A stretch of 64,000 nucleotides of DNA, from positions 35,790 to 99,789 of the forward strand of contig JBBSZK010000002.1 of assembly GCA_038044745.1 (NCBI GenBank). The letters run 5' to 3'. Shown piece by piece: positions 27,990 through 63,832 of the stretch. The translations under genes and the position numbers were made by a program. Position 1 is the first letter of the stretch. Each line of letters begins with the position of its first letter. The notes below the pieces were generated by a model. The model was not told the origin of the DNA. It saw only the letters and a list, made by a program, of their open reading frames with translations, and made no database searches. The DNA comes from Nanobdellota archaeon (GTDB lineage: Archaea > Nanobdellota > Nanobdellia > Pacearchaeales > GW2011-AR1).

Positions 27990-28113
27990 GAGCCTATAGC
28001 TCAGCCCGGTTTAGAGCACCGCTCTTATAAGATACGCGCTCGTGAGGGCGCCATTTTCATCGAAAAAATTCGAAGAAAGGCGGGGGTCCCCGGTTCAAAT
28101 CCGGGTAGGCTCA
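27990..28113 (+). tRNA. tRNA-Ile (anticodon UAU) with ~48-nt intron (28030..28077) at the canonical 37/38 position
   Basis: Hand fold: acceptor GAGCCUA/UAGGCUC, D stem GCUC/GAGC, anticodon stem CCGCU/GGCGG, loop CUUAUAA, variable loop GGGUC, T arm CCCGG-UUCAAAU-CCGGG, discriminator A. No encoded CCA. Confidence 0.65.
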
Positions 28114-28174: not shown

Positions 28175-28241
28175 CTCGTTCTTTCGCTGCGAGTCTCCGA
28201 AGCAAAGCGAGGAGGGTCGAGCAAGAAAAGAATCGAGAGAA

Positions 28242-29174
28242 TCACTTAATACAAAATATCAACGAACACTCATTCGCCTTATCTTTAAAAAAACGCACAT
28301 GTGAAAAATACATTTTACAAAACTTTTCCAATTCTTGAGCATAATATTTGTATTGAATAGCAACCACTATTTCATCACCTGCCTTAAATCTGATGCGTTT
28401 GCCCTCGCACACGAACACTTTATCGTGTTTGATATGGTAAAAGAACTCAAGACGACCGTTAGCAAATCGCGCATCATAACGCACCTCGGACGAGGAAAAA
28501 CCAAGGCCGGCCATGAGCGAAAAAAACCATTCGTTGAATATAGGCTGTCGATATTTTTCAATACCTGCAAACCGCTTTCCCGTACGAATTCCATTCCCAA
28601 CAATCAGCAGGCCCCCATGAGCCATGGCACGACTCATAGAAAAAAGAAATTGATTAATCTCAAAACTAGCCAATGTACTACCAAGAAGAAGGTATGCGGC
28701 GCGAGCATCAGACCGAGCCCTTATTCGCCTGACCAGTTTATCGGGAGATGAAAAGTCCTCGGTGTAAGAAGGCCCTACGGAAAACGTTCGCGACGTTCGC
28801 GTCCGTAACCGTGTTTTAGCAAGATGAATCAAAGGAAGGCTGACATCAACCGGAAAATATTTTGCCTTAATTGTGGAAGGAAGCGACGTTACAAAAACCT
28901 CTGCTTTTTTTCCATCCCCGCACCCAAAATCGACAACATCAAGTTTTCCTCGAGCACCATCAAAAAAACGAGGCACATGAAAACGAATCAAATCAAGTTC
29001 TCTATCGACTACATTAAGTTTATACCTCGGCCAACACTCCAAGTTAAGAAATCCTTGAGCAAGCTGGGGAGTTATGTAAAGCAGTTTATGATTAGCAATA
29101 TTCCACACACGTTTGCCACGCTCTACAGAGTACCCGTTCTTAACTAACTCTTTCAAAACGAGTTGTTCGAACAT
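28242..29174 (-). CDS. SAM-dependent methyltransferase, EgtD-like (Methyltransf_33-type histidine-specific methyltransferase family)
   Basis: Motif I VVDFGCGDGKKAEV. LLGSTLASFEINQ resembles the EgtD LGSTIGNF block. LLIVGNG is also present. Confidence 0.6.
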   Translation of the reverse strand: MFEQLVLKELVKNGYSVERGKRVWNIANHKLLYITPQLAQGFLNLECWPRYKLNVVDRELDLIRFHVPRFFDGARGKLDVVDFGCGDGKKAEVFVTSLPSTIKAKYFPVDVSLPLIHLAKTRLRTRTSRTFSVGPSYTEDFSSPDKLVRRIRARSDARAAYLLLGSTLASFEINQFLFSMSRAMAHGGLLIVGNGIRTGKRFAGIEKYRQPIFNEWFFSLMAGLGFSSSEVRYDARFANGRLEFFYHIKHDKVFVCEGKRIRFKAGDEIVVAIQYKYYAQELEKFCKMYFSHVRFFKDKANECSLIFCIK

Positions 29175-30290: not shown

Positions 30291-30363
30291 GCCCTTGTAG
30301 TCTAGTGGCCAAGGACGTCGCCCTTTCGCGGCGAAAACCCGGGTTCAAATCCCGGCAGGGGCA
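30291..30363 (+). tRNA. tRNA-Glu (anticodon UUC)
   Basis: Hand fold: acceptor GCCCUUG/CAGGGGC (one G-U), D stem GUCU/AGGAC, anticodon stem UCGCC/GGCGA, loop CUUUCGC, T arm CCGGG-UUCAAAU-CCCGG, discriminator A. No encoded CCA. Confidence 0.8.
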
Positions 30364-30380
30364 TAAACCATTTTGGCATT
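30351..30380 (+). repeat. attL: 30-bp direct repeat (cccggcaggggcataaaccattttggcatt) overlapping the last 13 nt of tRNA-Glu
   Basis: Exact copy at 57948..57977. The flanking sequence diverges on both sides. Confidence 0.8.
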
Positions 30381-30445: not shown

Positions 30446-31594
30446 ATGAAGATAGACCCATATAATAACAAAGAAAGATACCTTGCATGGCAACAATCGA
30501 CTACCAAGGGTATTCCCAATATTTCAAGCCAAAACTCTGAGATCATACTTCACTATCTAGAAGATATGGAAAGAGGGCTGAATGTAGCAATTGGAAGCCC
30601 AAAGGGTGGCCGAAGTTACCATAGATTAAATTCTCTAAAGGAACGGATGATTTTCTTTGCCAGACAATTTGCAGAACGACACGGAACAATAAAGCTGACA
30701 GAGATTACAGAGGATCAAATGTTAAACTTCTTCTTTGACATGAGAAAAGGGATAGTGAAAAAGCAAGACGGAGGCACCTATAAATCGGTCGATACATACG
30801 CTCGCATTTTTAGAGCATTTTGGCATTGGCACCAAAAAACGAGCAAGAAGCAAGGAATAGAAATCTCAGATATAACGACAGACTTGGACACAAGTGAAGA
30901 AAAACCAGACTGGGTATATCTCACAGAAAAACAAGTAAAGACGCTTGCTGAAAGCGTAAAATTCGATCATAAGGTGCTTATCATGTTTCTTTTCGATTCG
31001 GGAATACGCGCACCAACAGAACTCATCAACGTAAAAGTGTCCGATCTACACAACAATTGCAAGGAGCTTAATATTAGACAAGAAGTAAGTAAAACCTTCG
31101 GCCGTAGGATTAAACTCCTCATCTGTTCGGAACTGCTAAAAGAATACATCGAAAATAACGCCCTTCGGCCAGACGATACTCTTTTCGACATAAGTCCGCC
31201 CGTGTTTAACCGGTTCCTCAAAAGAGCAGGGTTAAAATTGTTCGGCGATAAACCCAGTCCTGCAGGACAAAATTATTCCGAGCTTACTATGTACGATTTT
31301 CGACACTGTTCTTGCTGTTACTGGTTACCACGATATAAATCGGAATCTGCCCTCAAATACAGATTTGGCTGGAAAAAAAGCGAAAAGATTCATTACTACA
31401 GTGAATTGCTAGGTATGAAAGACACAATCTCCGAAGAAGACCTCCTAATAGACACAACAAAGATAGAAATCGAGCAAAGACTCGAACGCTCAGAAAAAGA
31501 AAAAGCCATTATGCAAGATAGGATTAAGACAATGGAGTTGCAAATGGTCAATATAATGGAACTTGTCAAGCAACTCGAGATGGCTCATAAATAG
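30446..31594 (+). CDS. int: tyrosine recombinase / integrase (phage-integrase family)
   Basis: C-terminal catalytic region FDSGIRAPTELINVKVSDL...MYDFRHCSCCYWL...KIHYYSELLG is consistent with the R..H-x-x-R..Y arrangement. Lies beside the tRNA att site. Confidence 0.75.
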   Translation: MKIDPYNNKERYLAWQQSTTKGIPNISSQNSEIILHYLEDMERGLNVAIGSPKGGRSYHRLNSLKERMIFFARQFAERHGTIKLTEITEDQMLNFFFDMRKGIVKKQDGGTYKSVDTYARIFRAFWHWHQKTSKKQGIEISDITTDLDTSEEKPDWVYLTEKQVKTLAESVKFDHKVLIMFLFDSGIRAPTELINVKVSDLHNNCKELNIRQEVSKTFGRRIKLLICSELLKEYIENNALRPDDTLFDISPPVFNRFLKRAGLKLFGDKPSPAGQNYSELTMYDFRHCSCCYWLPRYKSESALKYRFGWKKSEKIHYYSELLGMKDTISEEDLLIDTTKIEIEQRLERSEKEKAIMQDRIKTMELQMVNIMELVKQLEMAHK

Positions 31595-57947: not shown

Positions 57948-57977
57948 CCCGGCAGGGGCATAAACCATTTTGGCATT
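57948..57977 (+). repeat. attR: second copy of the 30-bp direct repeat; preceded by the 11-bp inverted-repeat arm tgccaaaatgg (57931..57941), complementary to ccattttggca inside the repeat
   Basis: Exact match to 30351..30380. Confidence 0.8.
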
Positions 57978-58039: not shown

Positions 58040-58246
58040 ATGGAAAACACAACCATCGCGGTAAGCAACGACGTAAAAGAACAGATTAAGGAGTTCGGGA
58101 GCAAAGGCGAAACATACTCCGAGATACTAACACGATTGCTGGCGAGCGCCAGAAAAAGACAACTGCACGACCTTTTAATGAGTGAAGAAGGCACTATTCC
58201 TATAGAACAAGCCATTGCCGAGTCTAAAAGGAAATGGCAAAAGTAA
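58040..58246 (+). CDS. type II antitoxin (small DNA-binding protein) paired with the RelE-like toxin
   Basis: 68 aa. Overlaps the downstream toxin gene by 13 nt. TIAVSNDVKEQIKEFG...YSEILTRLL has an antitoxin-like fold pattern. Confidence 0.5.
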   Translation: MENTTIAVSNDVKEQIKEFGSKGETYSEILTRLLASARKRQLHDLLMSEEGTIPIEQAIAESKRKWQK

Positions 58247-58578
58247 TTATCACAGAAAGACTTAAGGAAGAGATTTACAAACAATTTAAGACCAAGTCTA
58301 CTGAAATATTCGAACTGATGTATAGCTTAAGTGAAAATCCGCATAAAGGAAAGCCACTTGGAAACGTAAGCTCGCTGGTTATAAAAGAGATAAAATATGA
58401 GAACTGTCGCTTTTATTTTATCACAGATGGGTTTAAAATAAAAATGCTTCAAAAAGAAGAATTAAGCGATTTAGTAATAAAGTTCGTGCGCATGTCAGAT
58501 AAAAAAACACAACAAAAAACCATTGATGAAATAAAAAATATTTTAAGAAAATTAGGAGAAGAAGGATTTCAGCGATAA
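58234..58578 (+). CDS. RelE/ParE-family toxin
   Basis: ENPHKGKPLGNVSSLVIKEIKYENCRFYFITDGFKIKMLQ resembles the RelE core (..P..GKPL.G....LR.G.YRiiY.i.d..i.il). Confidence 0.55.
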   Translation: MAKVIITERLKEEIYKQFKTKSTEIFELMYSLSENPHKGKPLGNVSSLVIKEIKYENCRFYFITDGFKIKMLQKEELSDLVIKFVRMSDKKTQQKTIDEIKNILRKLGEEGFQR

Positions 58579-58620
58579 TCGAGGAAATTAATTAAACACG
58601 ATAAATTTTGATTAATTATG

Positions 58621-58637
58621 TATCTCGACAATCCTTA
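58621..58637 (+). repeat. copy 2 of the repeat (tatctcgacaatcctta) between the two convergent TA cassettes
   Basis: 17-nt exact match to 59201..59217. Confidence 0.5.
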
Positions 58638-58889
58638 CTGCTCATCCTTATGATAAAACTCTAGAAACTCAATACAATTTCGATCTTTATGATAATCGTA
58701 AGAAAGCCGAAACGTTCCGCCATATAAATATACCTCGCGAGTTCCTTTTCTAGCATTACGCATTGGTTTACCAATTTCAGGATCTTCTACAATCTTCTTA
58801 ATTTTGTTTTTAACGCTCTTCTGAATTTCCGCATCTTTTACCTTAGCGACTGCACGTGTAAAGCGATCATCAAAGAGAACATCTACCAT
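58635..58889 (-). CDS. RelE/YoeB-family toxin
   Basis: EDPEIGKPMRNARKGTREVYLYGGTFRLSYDYHKDRNCIEFLEFYHKDE. 84 aa. Confidence 0.6.
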   Translation of the reverse strand: MVDVLFDDRFTRAVAKVKDAEIQKSVKNKIKKIVEDPEIGKPMRNARKGTREVYLYGGTFRLSYDYHKDRNCIEFLEFYHKDEQ

Positions 58890-62337: not shown

Positions 62338-62394
62338 CCCCAACAGCTTTTTATACCGTTTGTAAGTTCTCTATCCGAGCCGTAAGGCAAACAT

Positions 62395-62466
62395 GGCGGT
62401 TGTAGTGTACCGGTAGCACACCAGCTTGTGGCGCTGTTAGAGTGGGTTCAACTCCCACCTTCCGCT
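62395..62466 (+). tRNA. tRNA-His-like gene (anticodon GUG, encoded G-1) with two U-U mismatches in the acceptor stem
   Basis: Hand fold: G-1, acceptor GCGGUUG/CUUCCGC (5-68 and 6-67 U-U), D stem GUGU/GCAC with 7-nt loop, anticodon stem CCAGC/GCUGU, loop UUGUGGC, T arm GUGGG-UUCAACU-CCCAC, discriminator U. Lies 150 nt upstream of hisS. Confidence 0.5.
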
Positions 62467-62546
62467 TTTCCAAAAGGGGGAGTTGAACGGTTCAACTACT
62501 GAAATTCGAAGAATTGAAGTTACCGCGGAACATTGTTCTGCGAGTA

Positions 62547-62569
62547 CCCACCTTCCGCTTTTCCAAAAG
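62547..62569 (+). repeat. 23-nt direct duplicate of the tRNA-His 3' end (cccaccttccgcttttccaaaag; first copy 62454..62476), preceded by a complementary acceptor-like strand gcggaac (62525..62531)
   Basis: Exact repeat with ~70 nt between copies. The gcggaac...cttccgc pair would form a 6-bp helix. Confidence 0.6.
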
Positions 62570-62614
62570 AGGAGAACATTAGTTTTTTATAGAGCGCACA
62601 ACACCTAAGAGCGT

Positions 62615-63832
62615 ATGATATACGAACCAGACACCGTCAAGGGATTTCCCGAGTTTTTTCCCCCAGAATCACAAAAGTTCGAAGCGATAAAACGGATAGT
62701 CGAAGACGCGTTTACGCGCTACGGATTTATCCCTCTCAAAACACCCACAATTGAATTCGACGAACTTGCACGAGCCGAAAATCAAGGTACAGAAGATGAA
62801 GCAGTATCTGACCGATTTAAACTCCAGGACAAAGGCGGACGCAACCTCACACTCAGACACGAATTTACCTACCAACTTGCGCGCGTATTCAAACAGCATC
62901 AGGACATCAAGCTCCCCTTTAGACGCTACCAAATAGGTTCGGTCTTCAGAGACGAGCCTACGGCAACTGGAAGATACCGCGAATTCACCCAATGCGATAT
63001 CGACATTTTAGGAGACAGTTCCATTGAAGCCGACGCCGAATGTTTAGCCGCAGCAAGCGATATCCTAAAGGCGCTTGGTATCGACGCAAACATCCAAATA
63101 AACAACCGCAAATTAATGAATGCGATTCTAGACAGCGTACAAATTGTACAAAAAAAAGAGGTCATGCGAGAACTCGATAAATTAGACAAACTCGGCGAAG
63201 ACACCGTCAAGCTCAATCTCAAAAAATATGCCGACGCTAATCAGATTATCACTCTATTCAAACTCCTCGAAAAAGATTTAGCGTTTTTTATGAAAAACCT
63301 CTTTGACGGTGCAGAAGAGTTATTTAAGCTGAAGGACCTTGGAAAATGGTACGGCTACACAGTAAAGTTTAACCCGTTTCTTATGCGAGGGCTTTCGTAC
63401 TACACAGGCAACGTGTTCGAATGCAAAGTTAAAGAGAGCAAAAACTCCATCGCGGGAGGAGGAAGATATGCAGGCGTTGCAGGCAAGTTCATTAGACGAG
63501 AAATTCCTTCGGTAGGCATTTCGTTCAGCATTGAACGACTTATGGACTATGCAAAAATCCCAATCAGAAAAACAAAAGTGATTATTATCTCGATAGAACA
63601 ACCGCATGCAGCCATTCTCCTTGCACAAAAGTTGCGACATGAAGGCATTCCTGCGATTACGTCATTTGAAAAAGTCGGCAAAGCACTCGAATATGCCAAT
63701 GCTTATGACATTTCATTCGCGATATTTGTTGGCAAAGATGAGATAAAGAAGAAGAAGTTCAAATTAAAAGACCTCCAATCGGGTGTTGAAAAAGAGATAT
63801 CCGAAAGCACACTCTTCAAACAGCTACGTTAG
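62615..63832 (+). CDS. hisS: histidyl-tRNA synthetase
   Basis: Motif 2 YQIGSVFRDE...GRYREFTQCDIDI, motif 3 GGGRYAGVAG. C-terminal anticodon-binding domain. Confidence 0.9.
   Translation: MIYEPDTVKGFPEFFPPESQKFEAIKRIVEDAFTRYGFIPLKTPTIEFDELARAENQGTEDEAVSDRFKLQDKGGRNLTLRHEFTYQLARVFKQHQDIKLPFRRYQIGSVFRDEPTATGRYREFTQCDIDILGDSSIEADAECLAAASDILKALGIDANIQINNRKLMNAILDSVQIVQKKEVMRELDKLDKLGEDTVKLNLKKYADANQIITLFKLLEKDLAFFMKNLFDGAEELFKLKDLGKWYGYTVKFNPFLMRGLSYYTGNVFECKVKESKNSIAGGGRYAGVAGKFIRREIPSVGISFSIERLMDYAKIPIRKTKVIIISIEQPHAAILLAQKLRHEGIPAITSFEKVGKALEYANAYDISFAIFVGKDEIKKKKFKLKDLQSGVEKEISESTLFKQLR

Follow-up and report, generated by a model that had tools for sequence, protein, structure and literature searches.

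How should one read a histidine tRNA gene whose acceptor stem holds two U.U mismatches and whose 3′ end is found a second time a short way downstream? The question is raised by a stretch of 64,000 nucleotides from a Nanobdellota archaeon (assembly GCA_038044745.1, contig JBBSZK010000002.1, positions 35,790 to 99,789 of the forward strand), which we call the window and number from its first letter. The tRNA-His(GUG) gene and the second copy of its 3′ end stand directly upstream of hisS, the gene of the histidyl-tRNA synthetase (HisRS), at 62615-63832, as the first-pass annotation of this DNA had reported. That annotation had called the locus anomalous and had offered three explanations: a relic attachment (att) site of a lost integrase element, a split or alternative-half tRNA, or repair or editing at the RNA level. 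We will argue that the tRNA gene itself is in order and that the duplicated end belongs to a recurrent, structured, non-coding unit. The reading that we favour, and to which we give an even chance, is the site-specific insertion of a miniature element of this kind at the 3′ end of the tRNA-His gene.

We will first examine the tRNA gene and the motif upstream of it.

62348-62355, + strand: TTTTTATA, TATA-box-like, about 40 nt upstream of tRNA-His
62395-62466, + strand: tRNA-His(GUG), with G-1 at 62395 and the discriminator U73 at 62466, from ARAGORN, Rfam and 56 relatives

ARAGORN calls a tRNA-His(gtg) with anticodon GUG at 62395-62467, and the Rfam tRNA model scores 51.3 bits on 62396-62466 against a gathering score of 29, with two non-canonical acceptor pairs flagged. 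Read directly, the acceptor 5′ strand is GCGGUUG (62396-62402) and the 3′ strand CUUCCGC (62459-62465), which makes both 5:68 (62400/62461) and 6:67 (62401/62460) U.U. The anticodon, the encoded G-1 and the two mismatches of the first-pass annotation are therefore borne out. The CTTTTTATACC motif is likewise found upstream of tRNA-His in four relatives (L002, L008, L135 and L137), and TTTTTATA is likely the promoter of the gene. No second tRNA-His was found in the 64-kb window.

The mismatches have to be seen against the relatives of this lineage. We retrieved 80 loci from species-representative genomes by HisRS alignment; in most, hisS is preceded by tRNA-His at a distance of 11-2358 nt, and 56 tRNA-His genes adjoining hisS served for the comparison of the acceptor stem. 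G-1 is encoded in the genome in all 56, and position 73 is U in 45 and C in 11. Compensatory changes (C-G to U-A, G-C to A-U) are seen in the pairs 2:71, 3:70 and 4:69. Pair 6:67 is U.U in 45 genes, another pyrimidine pair in 4 (Y.Y in 49/56) and A-U in 7, while 5:68, which switches between U.U and A-U, is U.U in 21, U.C in 5 and Watson-Crick in 30. U5.U68 and U6.U67 thus appear to be an inherited, lineage-wide trait, tolerated or used, in an otherwise constrained gene, and they are unrelated to the insertion behind it. Since the U.U pairs are such a trait in a normally covarying gene, the word anomalous does not suit the tRNA itself, whose mismatches are normal for the lineage. Synteny and stem covariation show purifying selection, from which we judge the gene to be intact and working. 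Two other arrangements were seen among the relatives: the tRNA-His of L059, at about 2355-2490, is interrupted behind position 37 by a canonical intron, and L079 has two different tRNA-His genes (367-439 and 2045-2116), 1.6 kb apart, upstream of hisS.

What stands behind the gene is more unusual. The sequence CCCACCTTCCGCTTTTCCAAAAG is present at 62454-62476 and at 62547-62569, exact over 23 nt, or over 26 nt with one mismatch, and no such repeat is expected by chance (100 shuffles). The first-pass annotation had placed an exact 23-nt duplication about 70 nt downstream; the duplication is confirmed, 70 nt being the length of the spacer, while the second copy begins 93 nt downstream of the first, directly upstream of hisS. 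The arrangement is identical in L141, an independent assembly of another replicate, so that the repeat is not an assembly artefact. As we read the sequence, the 93-bp unit is composed of a 70-bp non-coding spacer followed by a copy of the T-stem 3′ strand, the acceptor 3′ strand, the discriminator and the trailer, and its anatomy would be the following.

62454-62476, + strand: copy 1 of the direct repeat, attL-like, with the T-stem 3′ strand, acceptor 3′ strand, U73 and 10 nt of trailer
62473-62488, + strand: "anti" segment AAAGGGGGAGTTGAAC, complementary to tRNA positions 54-68
62481-62497, + strand: hairpin P0, AGTTGAAC-G-GTTCAACT, from the repeats and the minimum free energy (MFE) fold
62498-62520, + strand: hairpin P2, ACU..AAUUC-GAA-GAAUU..AGU, from the MFE fold and covariance model R1
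62521-62546, + strand: hairpin P3, UACCGCGGAAC-AUU-GUUCUGCG-A-GUA, from the MFE fold and R1; includes gcggaac at 62525-62531
62547-62569, + strand: copy 2 of the direct repeat, attR-like; CCCACCUU pairs with 62474-62480 as helix P1, and a T-run follows

The anti segment is an inverted repeat of 16 nt with 88% complementarity, whose 5′ part forms helix P1 with copy 2 in the folds and whose 3′ part enters hairpin P0. The 3′ arm of P0 repeats the T-loop GGTTCAACT of the tRNA; P0 is present too in L008, L144, L150 and the first unit of L028, where this arm follows the T-loop of each tRNA, and the equivalent anti segments of other genomes track each one's own tRNA sequence. The inverted ends of the unit are only the 8-bp arms of P1, themselves tRNA sequence. 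The 70-nt spacer contains no open reading frame (ORF), and spacer and unit gave chance-level Rfam matches at E <= 10 and none at the gathering thresholds. The gcggaac within the spacer had been taken in the first-pass annotation for an orphan 5′ acceptor strand, able to pair perfectly with cttccgc. It makes six of the seven pairs, the seventh being C.C, and by our own arithmetic a 6/7 match somewhere in a 70-nt spacer has a chance of about 9%; the segment is the 5′ arm of hairpin P3, and unrelated sequence stands in its place in homologous units.

The evidence that the spacer is more than debris comes from other genomes. A second tRNA-His 3′ end is found 70-160 nt behind the gene in L008, L009, L014, L016, L039, L047, L064 and L144, units are also present in L041 and L150, where the contig starts within one, and L028 and L150 carry two units in tandem. 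Wherever the tRNA is present, the copy matches the tRNA-His of its own genome, C73 or A71 variants included. Measured from a conserved CUAC through the last base of the copy, six units have a length of exactly 65 nt, and nhmmer relates the units to one another with E-values between 1e-10 and 1e-17. Because MAFFT, applied to whole units, did not bring the structures into register, three units that were in register were used to build the covariance model R1, and the units were then realigned to it. A search with R1 returned ten units, all directly 3′ of tRNA-His, and no others in 523 kb.

Every unit has the same fold, made of the closing helix P1 and the hairpins P0, P2 and P3, where P1 pairs a purine-rich anti segment in the trailer with the copy's T-stem 3′ strand and positions 66-68. 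Fold z-scores range from -2.5 to -7.2 and are strongly negative in 7/7 units. In the R1-fitted alignment, which leans towards the structure of the model, 97.6% of the cells are paired, against 79% in shuffles (0/500 shuffles as good), changes on both sides are seen in 12 of 20 pairs, and slid registers pair at <= 50%. P2, helix 1 of R1, is 97.3% paired with double changes in 4/9 pairs, and P3, helix 2, is 97.8% paired with double changes in 8/11, among them the base variants UAC/GUA, CAC/GUG and UCC/GGA. Between the anti segment and the tRNA stretch complementary to it lie 8 to 37 nt, depending on the genome. The units always lie in tRNA orientation with a T-run at the end, and in L144 and L150 the unit precedes a gene other than hisS. 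On these sequence comparisons the spacer is not random debris but a member of a recurrent structured family. We also observed that the copied segment GGAUCACCUUCC of the L009, L028 and L041 units closely resembles the 3′ end of 16S rRNA, which is GGAUCACCUCCU, and that the anti segments AAGGUGA and GGAGG resemble Shine-Dalgarno sequences; this likeness is probably a coincidence of the tRNA-His sequence.

The distribution of the unit is patchy. A simple single-copy 3′ end, which the first-pass annotation had named as evidence against an anomalous locus, is what relatives at 87%, 84%, 78% and 72% HisRS identity have, and among the close relatives it was seen in L135, L137, L003 and L004; L003 carries the left part of the unit only, anti segment and P0, without a second copy. 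At 64% HisRS identity, in L008, a unit is present that is about 83% identical over the 65-nt part from P2 through P3 to the copy. L002, at 98% HisRS identity, is identical to the window at 129 of 132 bases through tRNA-His and carries 778 bp between the same repeats, as opposed to 69 nt in the window. This 778-bp cassette holds a zinc-ribbon ORF and a winged-helix-like ORF. The collinearity of the two loci breaks off sharply after CCGCTTTT (62469) and is restored at CGAGTA (62541), just before copy 2. The variants come from different wells of one aquifer (Hainich groundwater), that of the window from H43 and that of L002 from H52; the tRNA junction is the very point at which one H52 contig stops, and another has a different sequence within the cassette.

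Further traces point the same way in other lineages. The first unit of L028 is 88% identical to the L009 unit and 70% to its own tandem neighbour; since it is closer to the former, the two L028 units are taken for separate insertions. In L008 a further, third copy, CTCCTTCCGC, mismatches the genome's own tRNA sequence CCCACCTTCCGC and matches the tRNA-His of other lineages, as would be expected for imported DNA. A transfer of the whole tRNA-His gene between the lineage of the window and L008 was considered and is not needed, the 100% tRNA identity fitting slow evolution within the clade. The region around tRNA-His appears from the sequences to be rearranged between strains. In L002/L161 (contig CAYHBQ010000008.1) an integrase of the same family as that of the tRNA-Glu island described below is found past a rhomboid gene, 1.5 kb from tRNA-His, and beside it lies a 12-nt fragment of a tRNA-Glu 3′ end, CGGCAGGGGCAT. 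The PHO4, PhoU and toxin-antitoxin genes of the corresponding window position are missing in L002. Elsewhere the gap between tRNA-His and hisS holds ORFs for GNAT, NYN, MazE-like and nucleotidyltransferase proteins, which are accessory genes.

A site-specific insertion would connect these observations as follows. The tRNA-His 3′ end would be used as an att-type insertion site, and the addition of the 93-bp unit behind the gene would leave the tRNA intact and produce the 23-nt direct repeat; the empty site would read tRNA-His and then directly ...CCAAAAGAGGAGAAC. The units would form an integrase-less miniature family, restricted to the position directly 3′ of tRNA-His and scattered, singly or in tandem, over Pacearchaeota-like genomes. 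They may be moved or exchanged by a recombinase acting in trans, for which the likeliest candidate would be the tyrosine integrase family of a 27.6-kb island at the tRNA-Glu gene of the same window, and the conserved hairpins would belong to the substrate on which it acts. A preference for tRNA 3′ ends is known from archaeal integrases, whose att sites can reach further than the gene (PMC8371274). The tRNA-His locus has features of this type, namely a direct repeat of the 3′ portion next to an intact tRNA, and a site that is empty or differently occupied in close relatives.

Several results weigh against an insertion. The 70-nt insert of the window encodes neither an integrase nor any other gene, and no integrase lies between tRNA-His and hisS in the roughly 80 loci examined. 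A free or attP form was not found in viral, phage and plasmid collections: a scan of viral contigs with GCGAGTN{1,3}CACCTTCCGC gave 53 matches, all due to chance in GC-rich phage contigs, relatives of the integrase were absent from viral contigs (searched with a single sequence or a 27-sequence alignment), BLAST of tRNA end plus unit had no match in phage and plasmid collections, and a metagenome scan for units returned chromosomal copies and tandem arrays only. A unit of 93 bp is too small for easy circularisation as duplex DNA. The compensatory pairing and the fold z-scores are the signature of selection on a single-stranded fold, not on duplex att arms, and the 8-37 nt between anti segment and complement misfits a fixed recombinase core. 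Moreover, the constant tRNA orientation and the terminal T-run would equally fit co-transcription, and a read-through transcript can fold as a switch in which the anti segment captures the real 3′ end.

The other tRNA genes of the window put this locus in context, as a direct repeat of the 3′ end is found at all three of them (Glu, Ile and His).

27990-28113: tRNA-Ile(UAU), 53 bits with Rfam, missed by ARAGORN
28175-28243: member of a structured family that we call type B, whose start always lies 2-3 nt behind the 3′ end of a tRNA or a copy of that end
30291-30363: tRNA-Glu(UUC), whose last 13 nt and 17 nt of trailer recur
30446-31594: tyrosine integrase of 382 aa at the start of the tRNA-Glu island (PHROG_1, E = 3e-15)

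Exact 30-nt direct repeats at 30351-30380 and 57948-57977 flank the 27.6-kb island behind tRNA-Glu. Among the products encoded there are those of a type III restriction-modification system, a radical SAM protein and a 1912-aa RHS/TcdB-like protein, together with a TraG/VirB4-like ATPase and a PrgI-like protein; the island is integrative and probably conjugative. The integrase has no match in Pfam and none by sequence in the PDB, and for its family >2400 homologs are counted among related genomes. At the right junction of the island, the copied tRNA end stands between the arms of an 11-bp inverted repeat, TGCCAAAATGG / CCATTTTGGCA, and pairs of small, toxin-antitoxin-like ORFs lie just outside that end (58040-58889). 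At tRNA-Ile(UAU), whose anticodon loop is interrupted by an intron of some 50 nt, the last 14 nt, CCGGGTAGGCTCAT, recur 60 nt downstream and make a second small att-like scar.

The type B family is also found in L005 (349-416), L010, L015, L040, L046, L064, L073 and L076, directly after tRNA-His. Its closing helix of 12 bp shows compensatory changes (10 of the 20 pairs predicted). The internal loop, CCGCAGYGAGU / UCGARCAAGAG, is invariant, and some members have a further hairpin with a GA..GA loop, behind which comes AUA or AGA; the family has no Rfam match. In several genomes it fills a short gap between tRNA-His and hisS without a visible promoter. Because a CCG...CGAGU motif is common to both, type B and the tRNA-His units may be related. 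An H/ACA guide was considered for type B and rejected: it would account for the K-loop-like GA..GA and for the ANA box, but neither for the invariant "pocket" nor for the roughly 20 nt between pocket and box.

The tRNA must also be read together with the synthetase that charges it.

62583-62591, + strand: TTTTTTATA, TATA-like, 23 nt upstream of the hisS ATG
62615-63832, + strand: hisS, histidyl-tRNA synthetase of 405 aa, from the ORF, Pfam families and alignment to solved HisRS structures

The HisRS gene is flanked on its contig by genes for an archaeal ribosomal protein, Spt4 and Rpb7, and the position of the TATA-like motif suggests that hisS here has its own promoter and a leaderless mRNA. 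In prokaryotes the identity of tRNA-His rests on G-1:C73, where C73 is read by a glutamine in motif 2 of HisRS (PMC10100707). The genes studied here share with this canonical set the encoded G-1 (56/56) and the anticodon GUG, and differ from it by U73 in 45/56, by the conserved Y.Y at 6:67 and by an alanine of HisRS in place of the glutamine. In the window the discriminator is U73 (62466) rather than C73. The motif-2 loop (residues ~113-122) reads DEPTATGRYR, against EEPQAGRYR in the Thermoplasma HisRS, and the alignment to solved HisRS structures puts Ala at the C73-reading Gln position; the two motif-2 loop positions concerned vary across 30 aligned HisRS homologs. As its HisRS does without the C73-reading Gln, the C73 rule is apparently relaxed in this lineage. 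The loss of the Gln fits U73, and judging from the alignments it seems to travel together with the mismatch trait.

With these elements in hand, the other explanations of the locus can be weighed, beginning with those that place the fault in the tRNA. Two adjacent U.U pairs weaken the acceptor stem, and the fold energy of the tRNA alone is no better than that of shuffled sequence, so that a pseudogene, or a gene whose U.U pairs need repair or editing at the RNA level, could be envisaged. Such a gene would hardly show U6.U67 in 45/56 relatives and Y.Y in 49/56, other acceptor pairs that covary normally, G-1 in 56/56 and a HisRS that has lost its C73-reading Gln in step with U73, nor would one expect it to be the only tRNA-His in the 64-kb window. 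We know of no U-to-C or U-to-A tRNA editing in archaea, and we give this explanation almost no credence. Hardly more can be said for a disrupted tRNA-His, be it a split or alternative-half gene or a gene with a 93-nt intervening sequence in the T-arm whose distal copy supplies the mature 3′ end, an arrangement that we consider very improbable. It can call on the MFE fold of the 168-nt read-through transcript, in which the 5′ acceptor strand and T-stem 5′ strand pair with the distal copy, and on the fact that the integration of mobile elements can yield archaeal tRNA fragments and introns (PMC3293823; PMC8371274). Against it stand the contiguous, complete 72-nt gene at 51.3 bits, the single 3′ ends of close relatives, and the tandem units of L028 and L150, which would be senseless as introns. 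Both copies give the same mature sequence, and therefore the distal one brings no gain, which argues against this arrangement. MFE folds and manual inspection, in lieu of a dedicated search for introns or split tRNAs, revealed no bulge-helix-bulge at the repeat borders; a bulge-helix-bulge intron at 60/61 was dismissed on inspection too, the end of the intron not being complementary to the T-loop.

Of the three explanations of the first-pass annotation, the relic att site comes closest: the duplicated 3′ end is indeed attL/attR-like, while the insert is conserved, structured and recurrent and so not a mere relic. Taken at its strictest, as the inert remainder of an integrase-bearing element that was almost wholly deleted, leaving 70 nt without mobility or function, the idea draws on the full-size architecture at tRNA-Glu in the same window, on the minimal 46-nt remnant at tRNA-Ile and on L003 with its left unit part and no second copy. 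Independent deletions would not, however, leave the same three hairpins and a near-constant 65-nt P2-P3-copy segment in distant genomes, and neither the compensatory changes nor the tandem arrays would be explained; we regard it as improbable. A stronger competitor, which we nevertheless hold to be rather unlikely, is a functional RNA linked to tRNA-His and co-transcribed with it by read-through of the short T-run, in which the fold P1, P0, P2 and P3 is what selection maintains. The 3′-end copy and the anti segment could then form a three-part switch acting on the maturation of tRNA-His or on read-through into hisS, and the duplication would be kept by function and gene conversion instead of arising by insertion. 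The compensatory changes in P2 and P3 and the z-scores of the 7/7 units speak for it, as do GNRA-type tetraloops in several units, a plus strand somewhat more stable than the minus strand in 8/9, the way in which anti segment and copy follow each genome's own tRNA, and a read-through fold in which the anti segment takes the proximal 3′ end and the distal copy completes the cloverleaf. So do the synteny of tRNA-His and hisS in dozens of genomes, in several of which hisS lies 11-94 nt behind without a visible promoter, and the existence of type B, a second structured family behind tRNA 3′ ends that covaries strongly. Yet the unit is present in only about 12 of some 60 loci with readable upstream sequence and absent in the closest relatives, the 98%-HisRS strain L002 has an unrelated two-ORF cassette in its stead, the unit stands before a non-hisS gene in L144 and L150, and in the window a separate TATA box behind the unit seems to serve hisS. 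In addition, G.U accounts for 11 of 292 predicted pairs, fewer than a typical structured RNA would have, the loop sequences are not conserved, and Rfam has no match for the unit. Other candidates were set aside: a leader or operator of hisS, since the units of L144 and L150 precede a different gene; a small ribozyme, hammerhead or other, whose conserved core motifs are lacking on inspection; an IS200/IS605-type miniature element, which leaves the 23-nt repeat unexplained; and an origin of the anti segment in a primer-binding-site-like sequence, as it has no complement of the terminal CCGC/CCA and the copy carries the genomic trailer and not CCA.

Site-specific insertion, the reading that we favour, has parallels in known systems, none of which covers the tRNA-His units entirely. 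The attL/attR duplications of archaeal tyrosine recombinases ("classical" integrases of the pNOB8, SNJ2 and pT26-2 types; PMC8371274) likewise repeat the 3′ part of a tRNA past the gene end, regenerate the tRNA intact and make a site variable between strains, with an example at tRNA-Glu, but the tRNA-His insert is 70 nt long, non-coding, integrase-less, folded into conserved hairpins and found in tandem arrays. In Caldiarchaeum subterraneum a natural population holds alternative states of the tRNA-Thr locus, where a recombinase-bearing insertion left tRNA fragments (Sugahara et al. 2012, PMC3293823). There, a 5′ fragment and introns are concerned and the 1.8-kb insert encodes the recombinase, whereas at tRNA-His the 3′ fragment is duplicated, the tRNA is uninterrupted and the insert is non-coding. 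The split tRNAs of Nanoarchaeum equitans, which include tRNA-His, share the DPANN host and the presence of a partial tRNA piece beside a complementary sequence; their hallmark, halves without a contiguous gene that are joined at a bulge-helix-bulge, is not seen here. Non-autonomous elements that are flanked by att sites and moved in trans, for example the bacterial cis-mobilizable elements (CIMEs) and integrative mobilisable elements, and the elements resembling miniature inverted-repeat transposable elements (MITEs) are similarly small, recombinase-less, bounded by repeats, patchy and prone to tandem accretion. CIMEs and MITE-like elements measure hundreds to thousands of bp, and MITEs have terminal inverted repeats and short (2-15 bp) target duplications. 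Here, instead, tRNA and trailer make up a flanking repeat of 23-26 nt (across units, the repeated tRNA sequence measures 13-26 nt), so that the unit is likened to these elements rather than assigned to them, and its mobility is presumed. Finally, integron attC sites and the attP(+) hairpin of CTX-phi offer an analogy, in that structure is conserved while sequence varies, arrays at one site resemble cassettes, and the folded P1 and P0 rebuild the target duplex, here tRNA positions 54-68. It is an analogy only, with no IntI/Xer-type partner identified and no R'/R'' core consensus across the units.

We tentatively propose that the units, with P0, P2, P3 and the 3′-end copy, represent an undescribed class of tRNA-His-specific elements of Pacearchaeota-like DPANN archaea, either a mobile element or a riboregulator. 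If mobile, the folded single strand (P1 and P0) could rebuild the T-arm/acceptor duplex as a recombination site; if a riboregulator, the anti segment could toggle between the real tRNA 3′ end and the decoy copy. The acceptor stem weakened by its U.U pairs would ease the capture of a strand, and type B would be a member of the same superfamily.

For annotation, this means that the tRNA-His should be kept as functional despite its two U.U mismatches, and that its second 3′ end should not be read as a piece of a split tRNA. This DPANN lineage as a whole appears to use a tRNA-His in which U73 wobbles with G-1 and two pyrimidines face each other, in a conserved mismatch, at 6:67; the combination of U73 with a HisRS devoid of the Gln is a testable variant of the histidine identity rules. 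With a scar or an island at 3/3 tRNAs in 64 kb, the 3′ ends of tRNA genes in these tiny genomes are busy insertion sites. The structured non-coding units of 65-150 nt at tRNA-His are without known counterpart: if they are mobile, they would rank among the smallest site-specific elements known, and if they act as RNAs, they would be a new tRNA-linked regulator.

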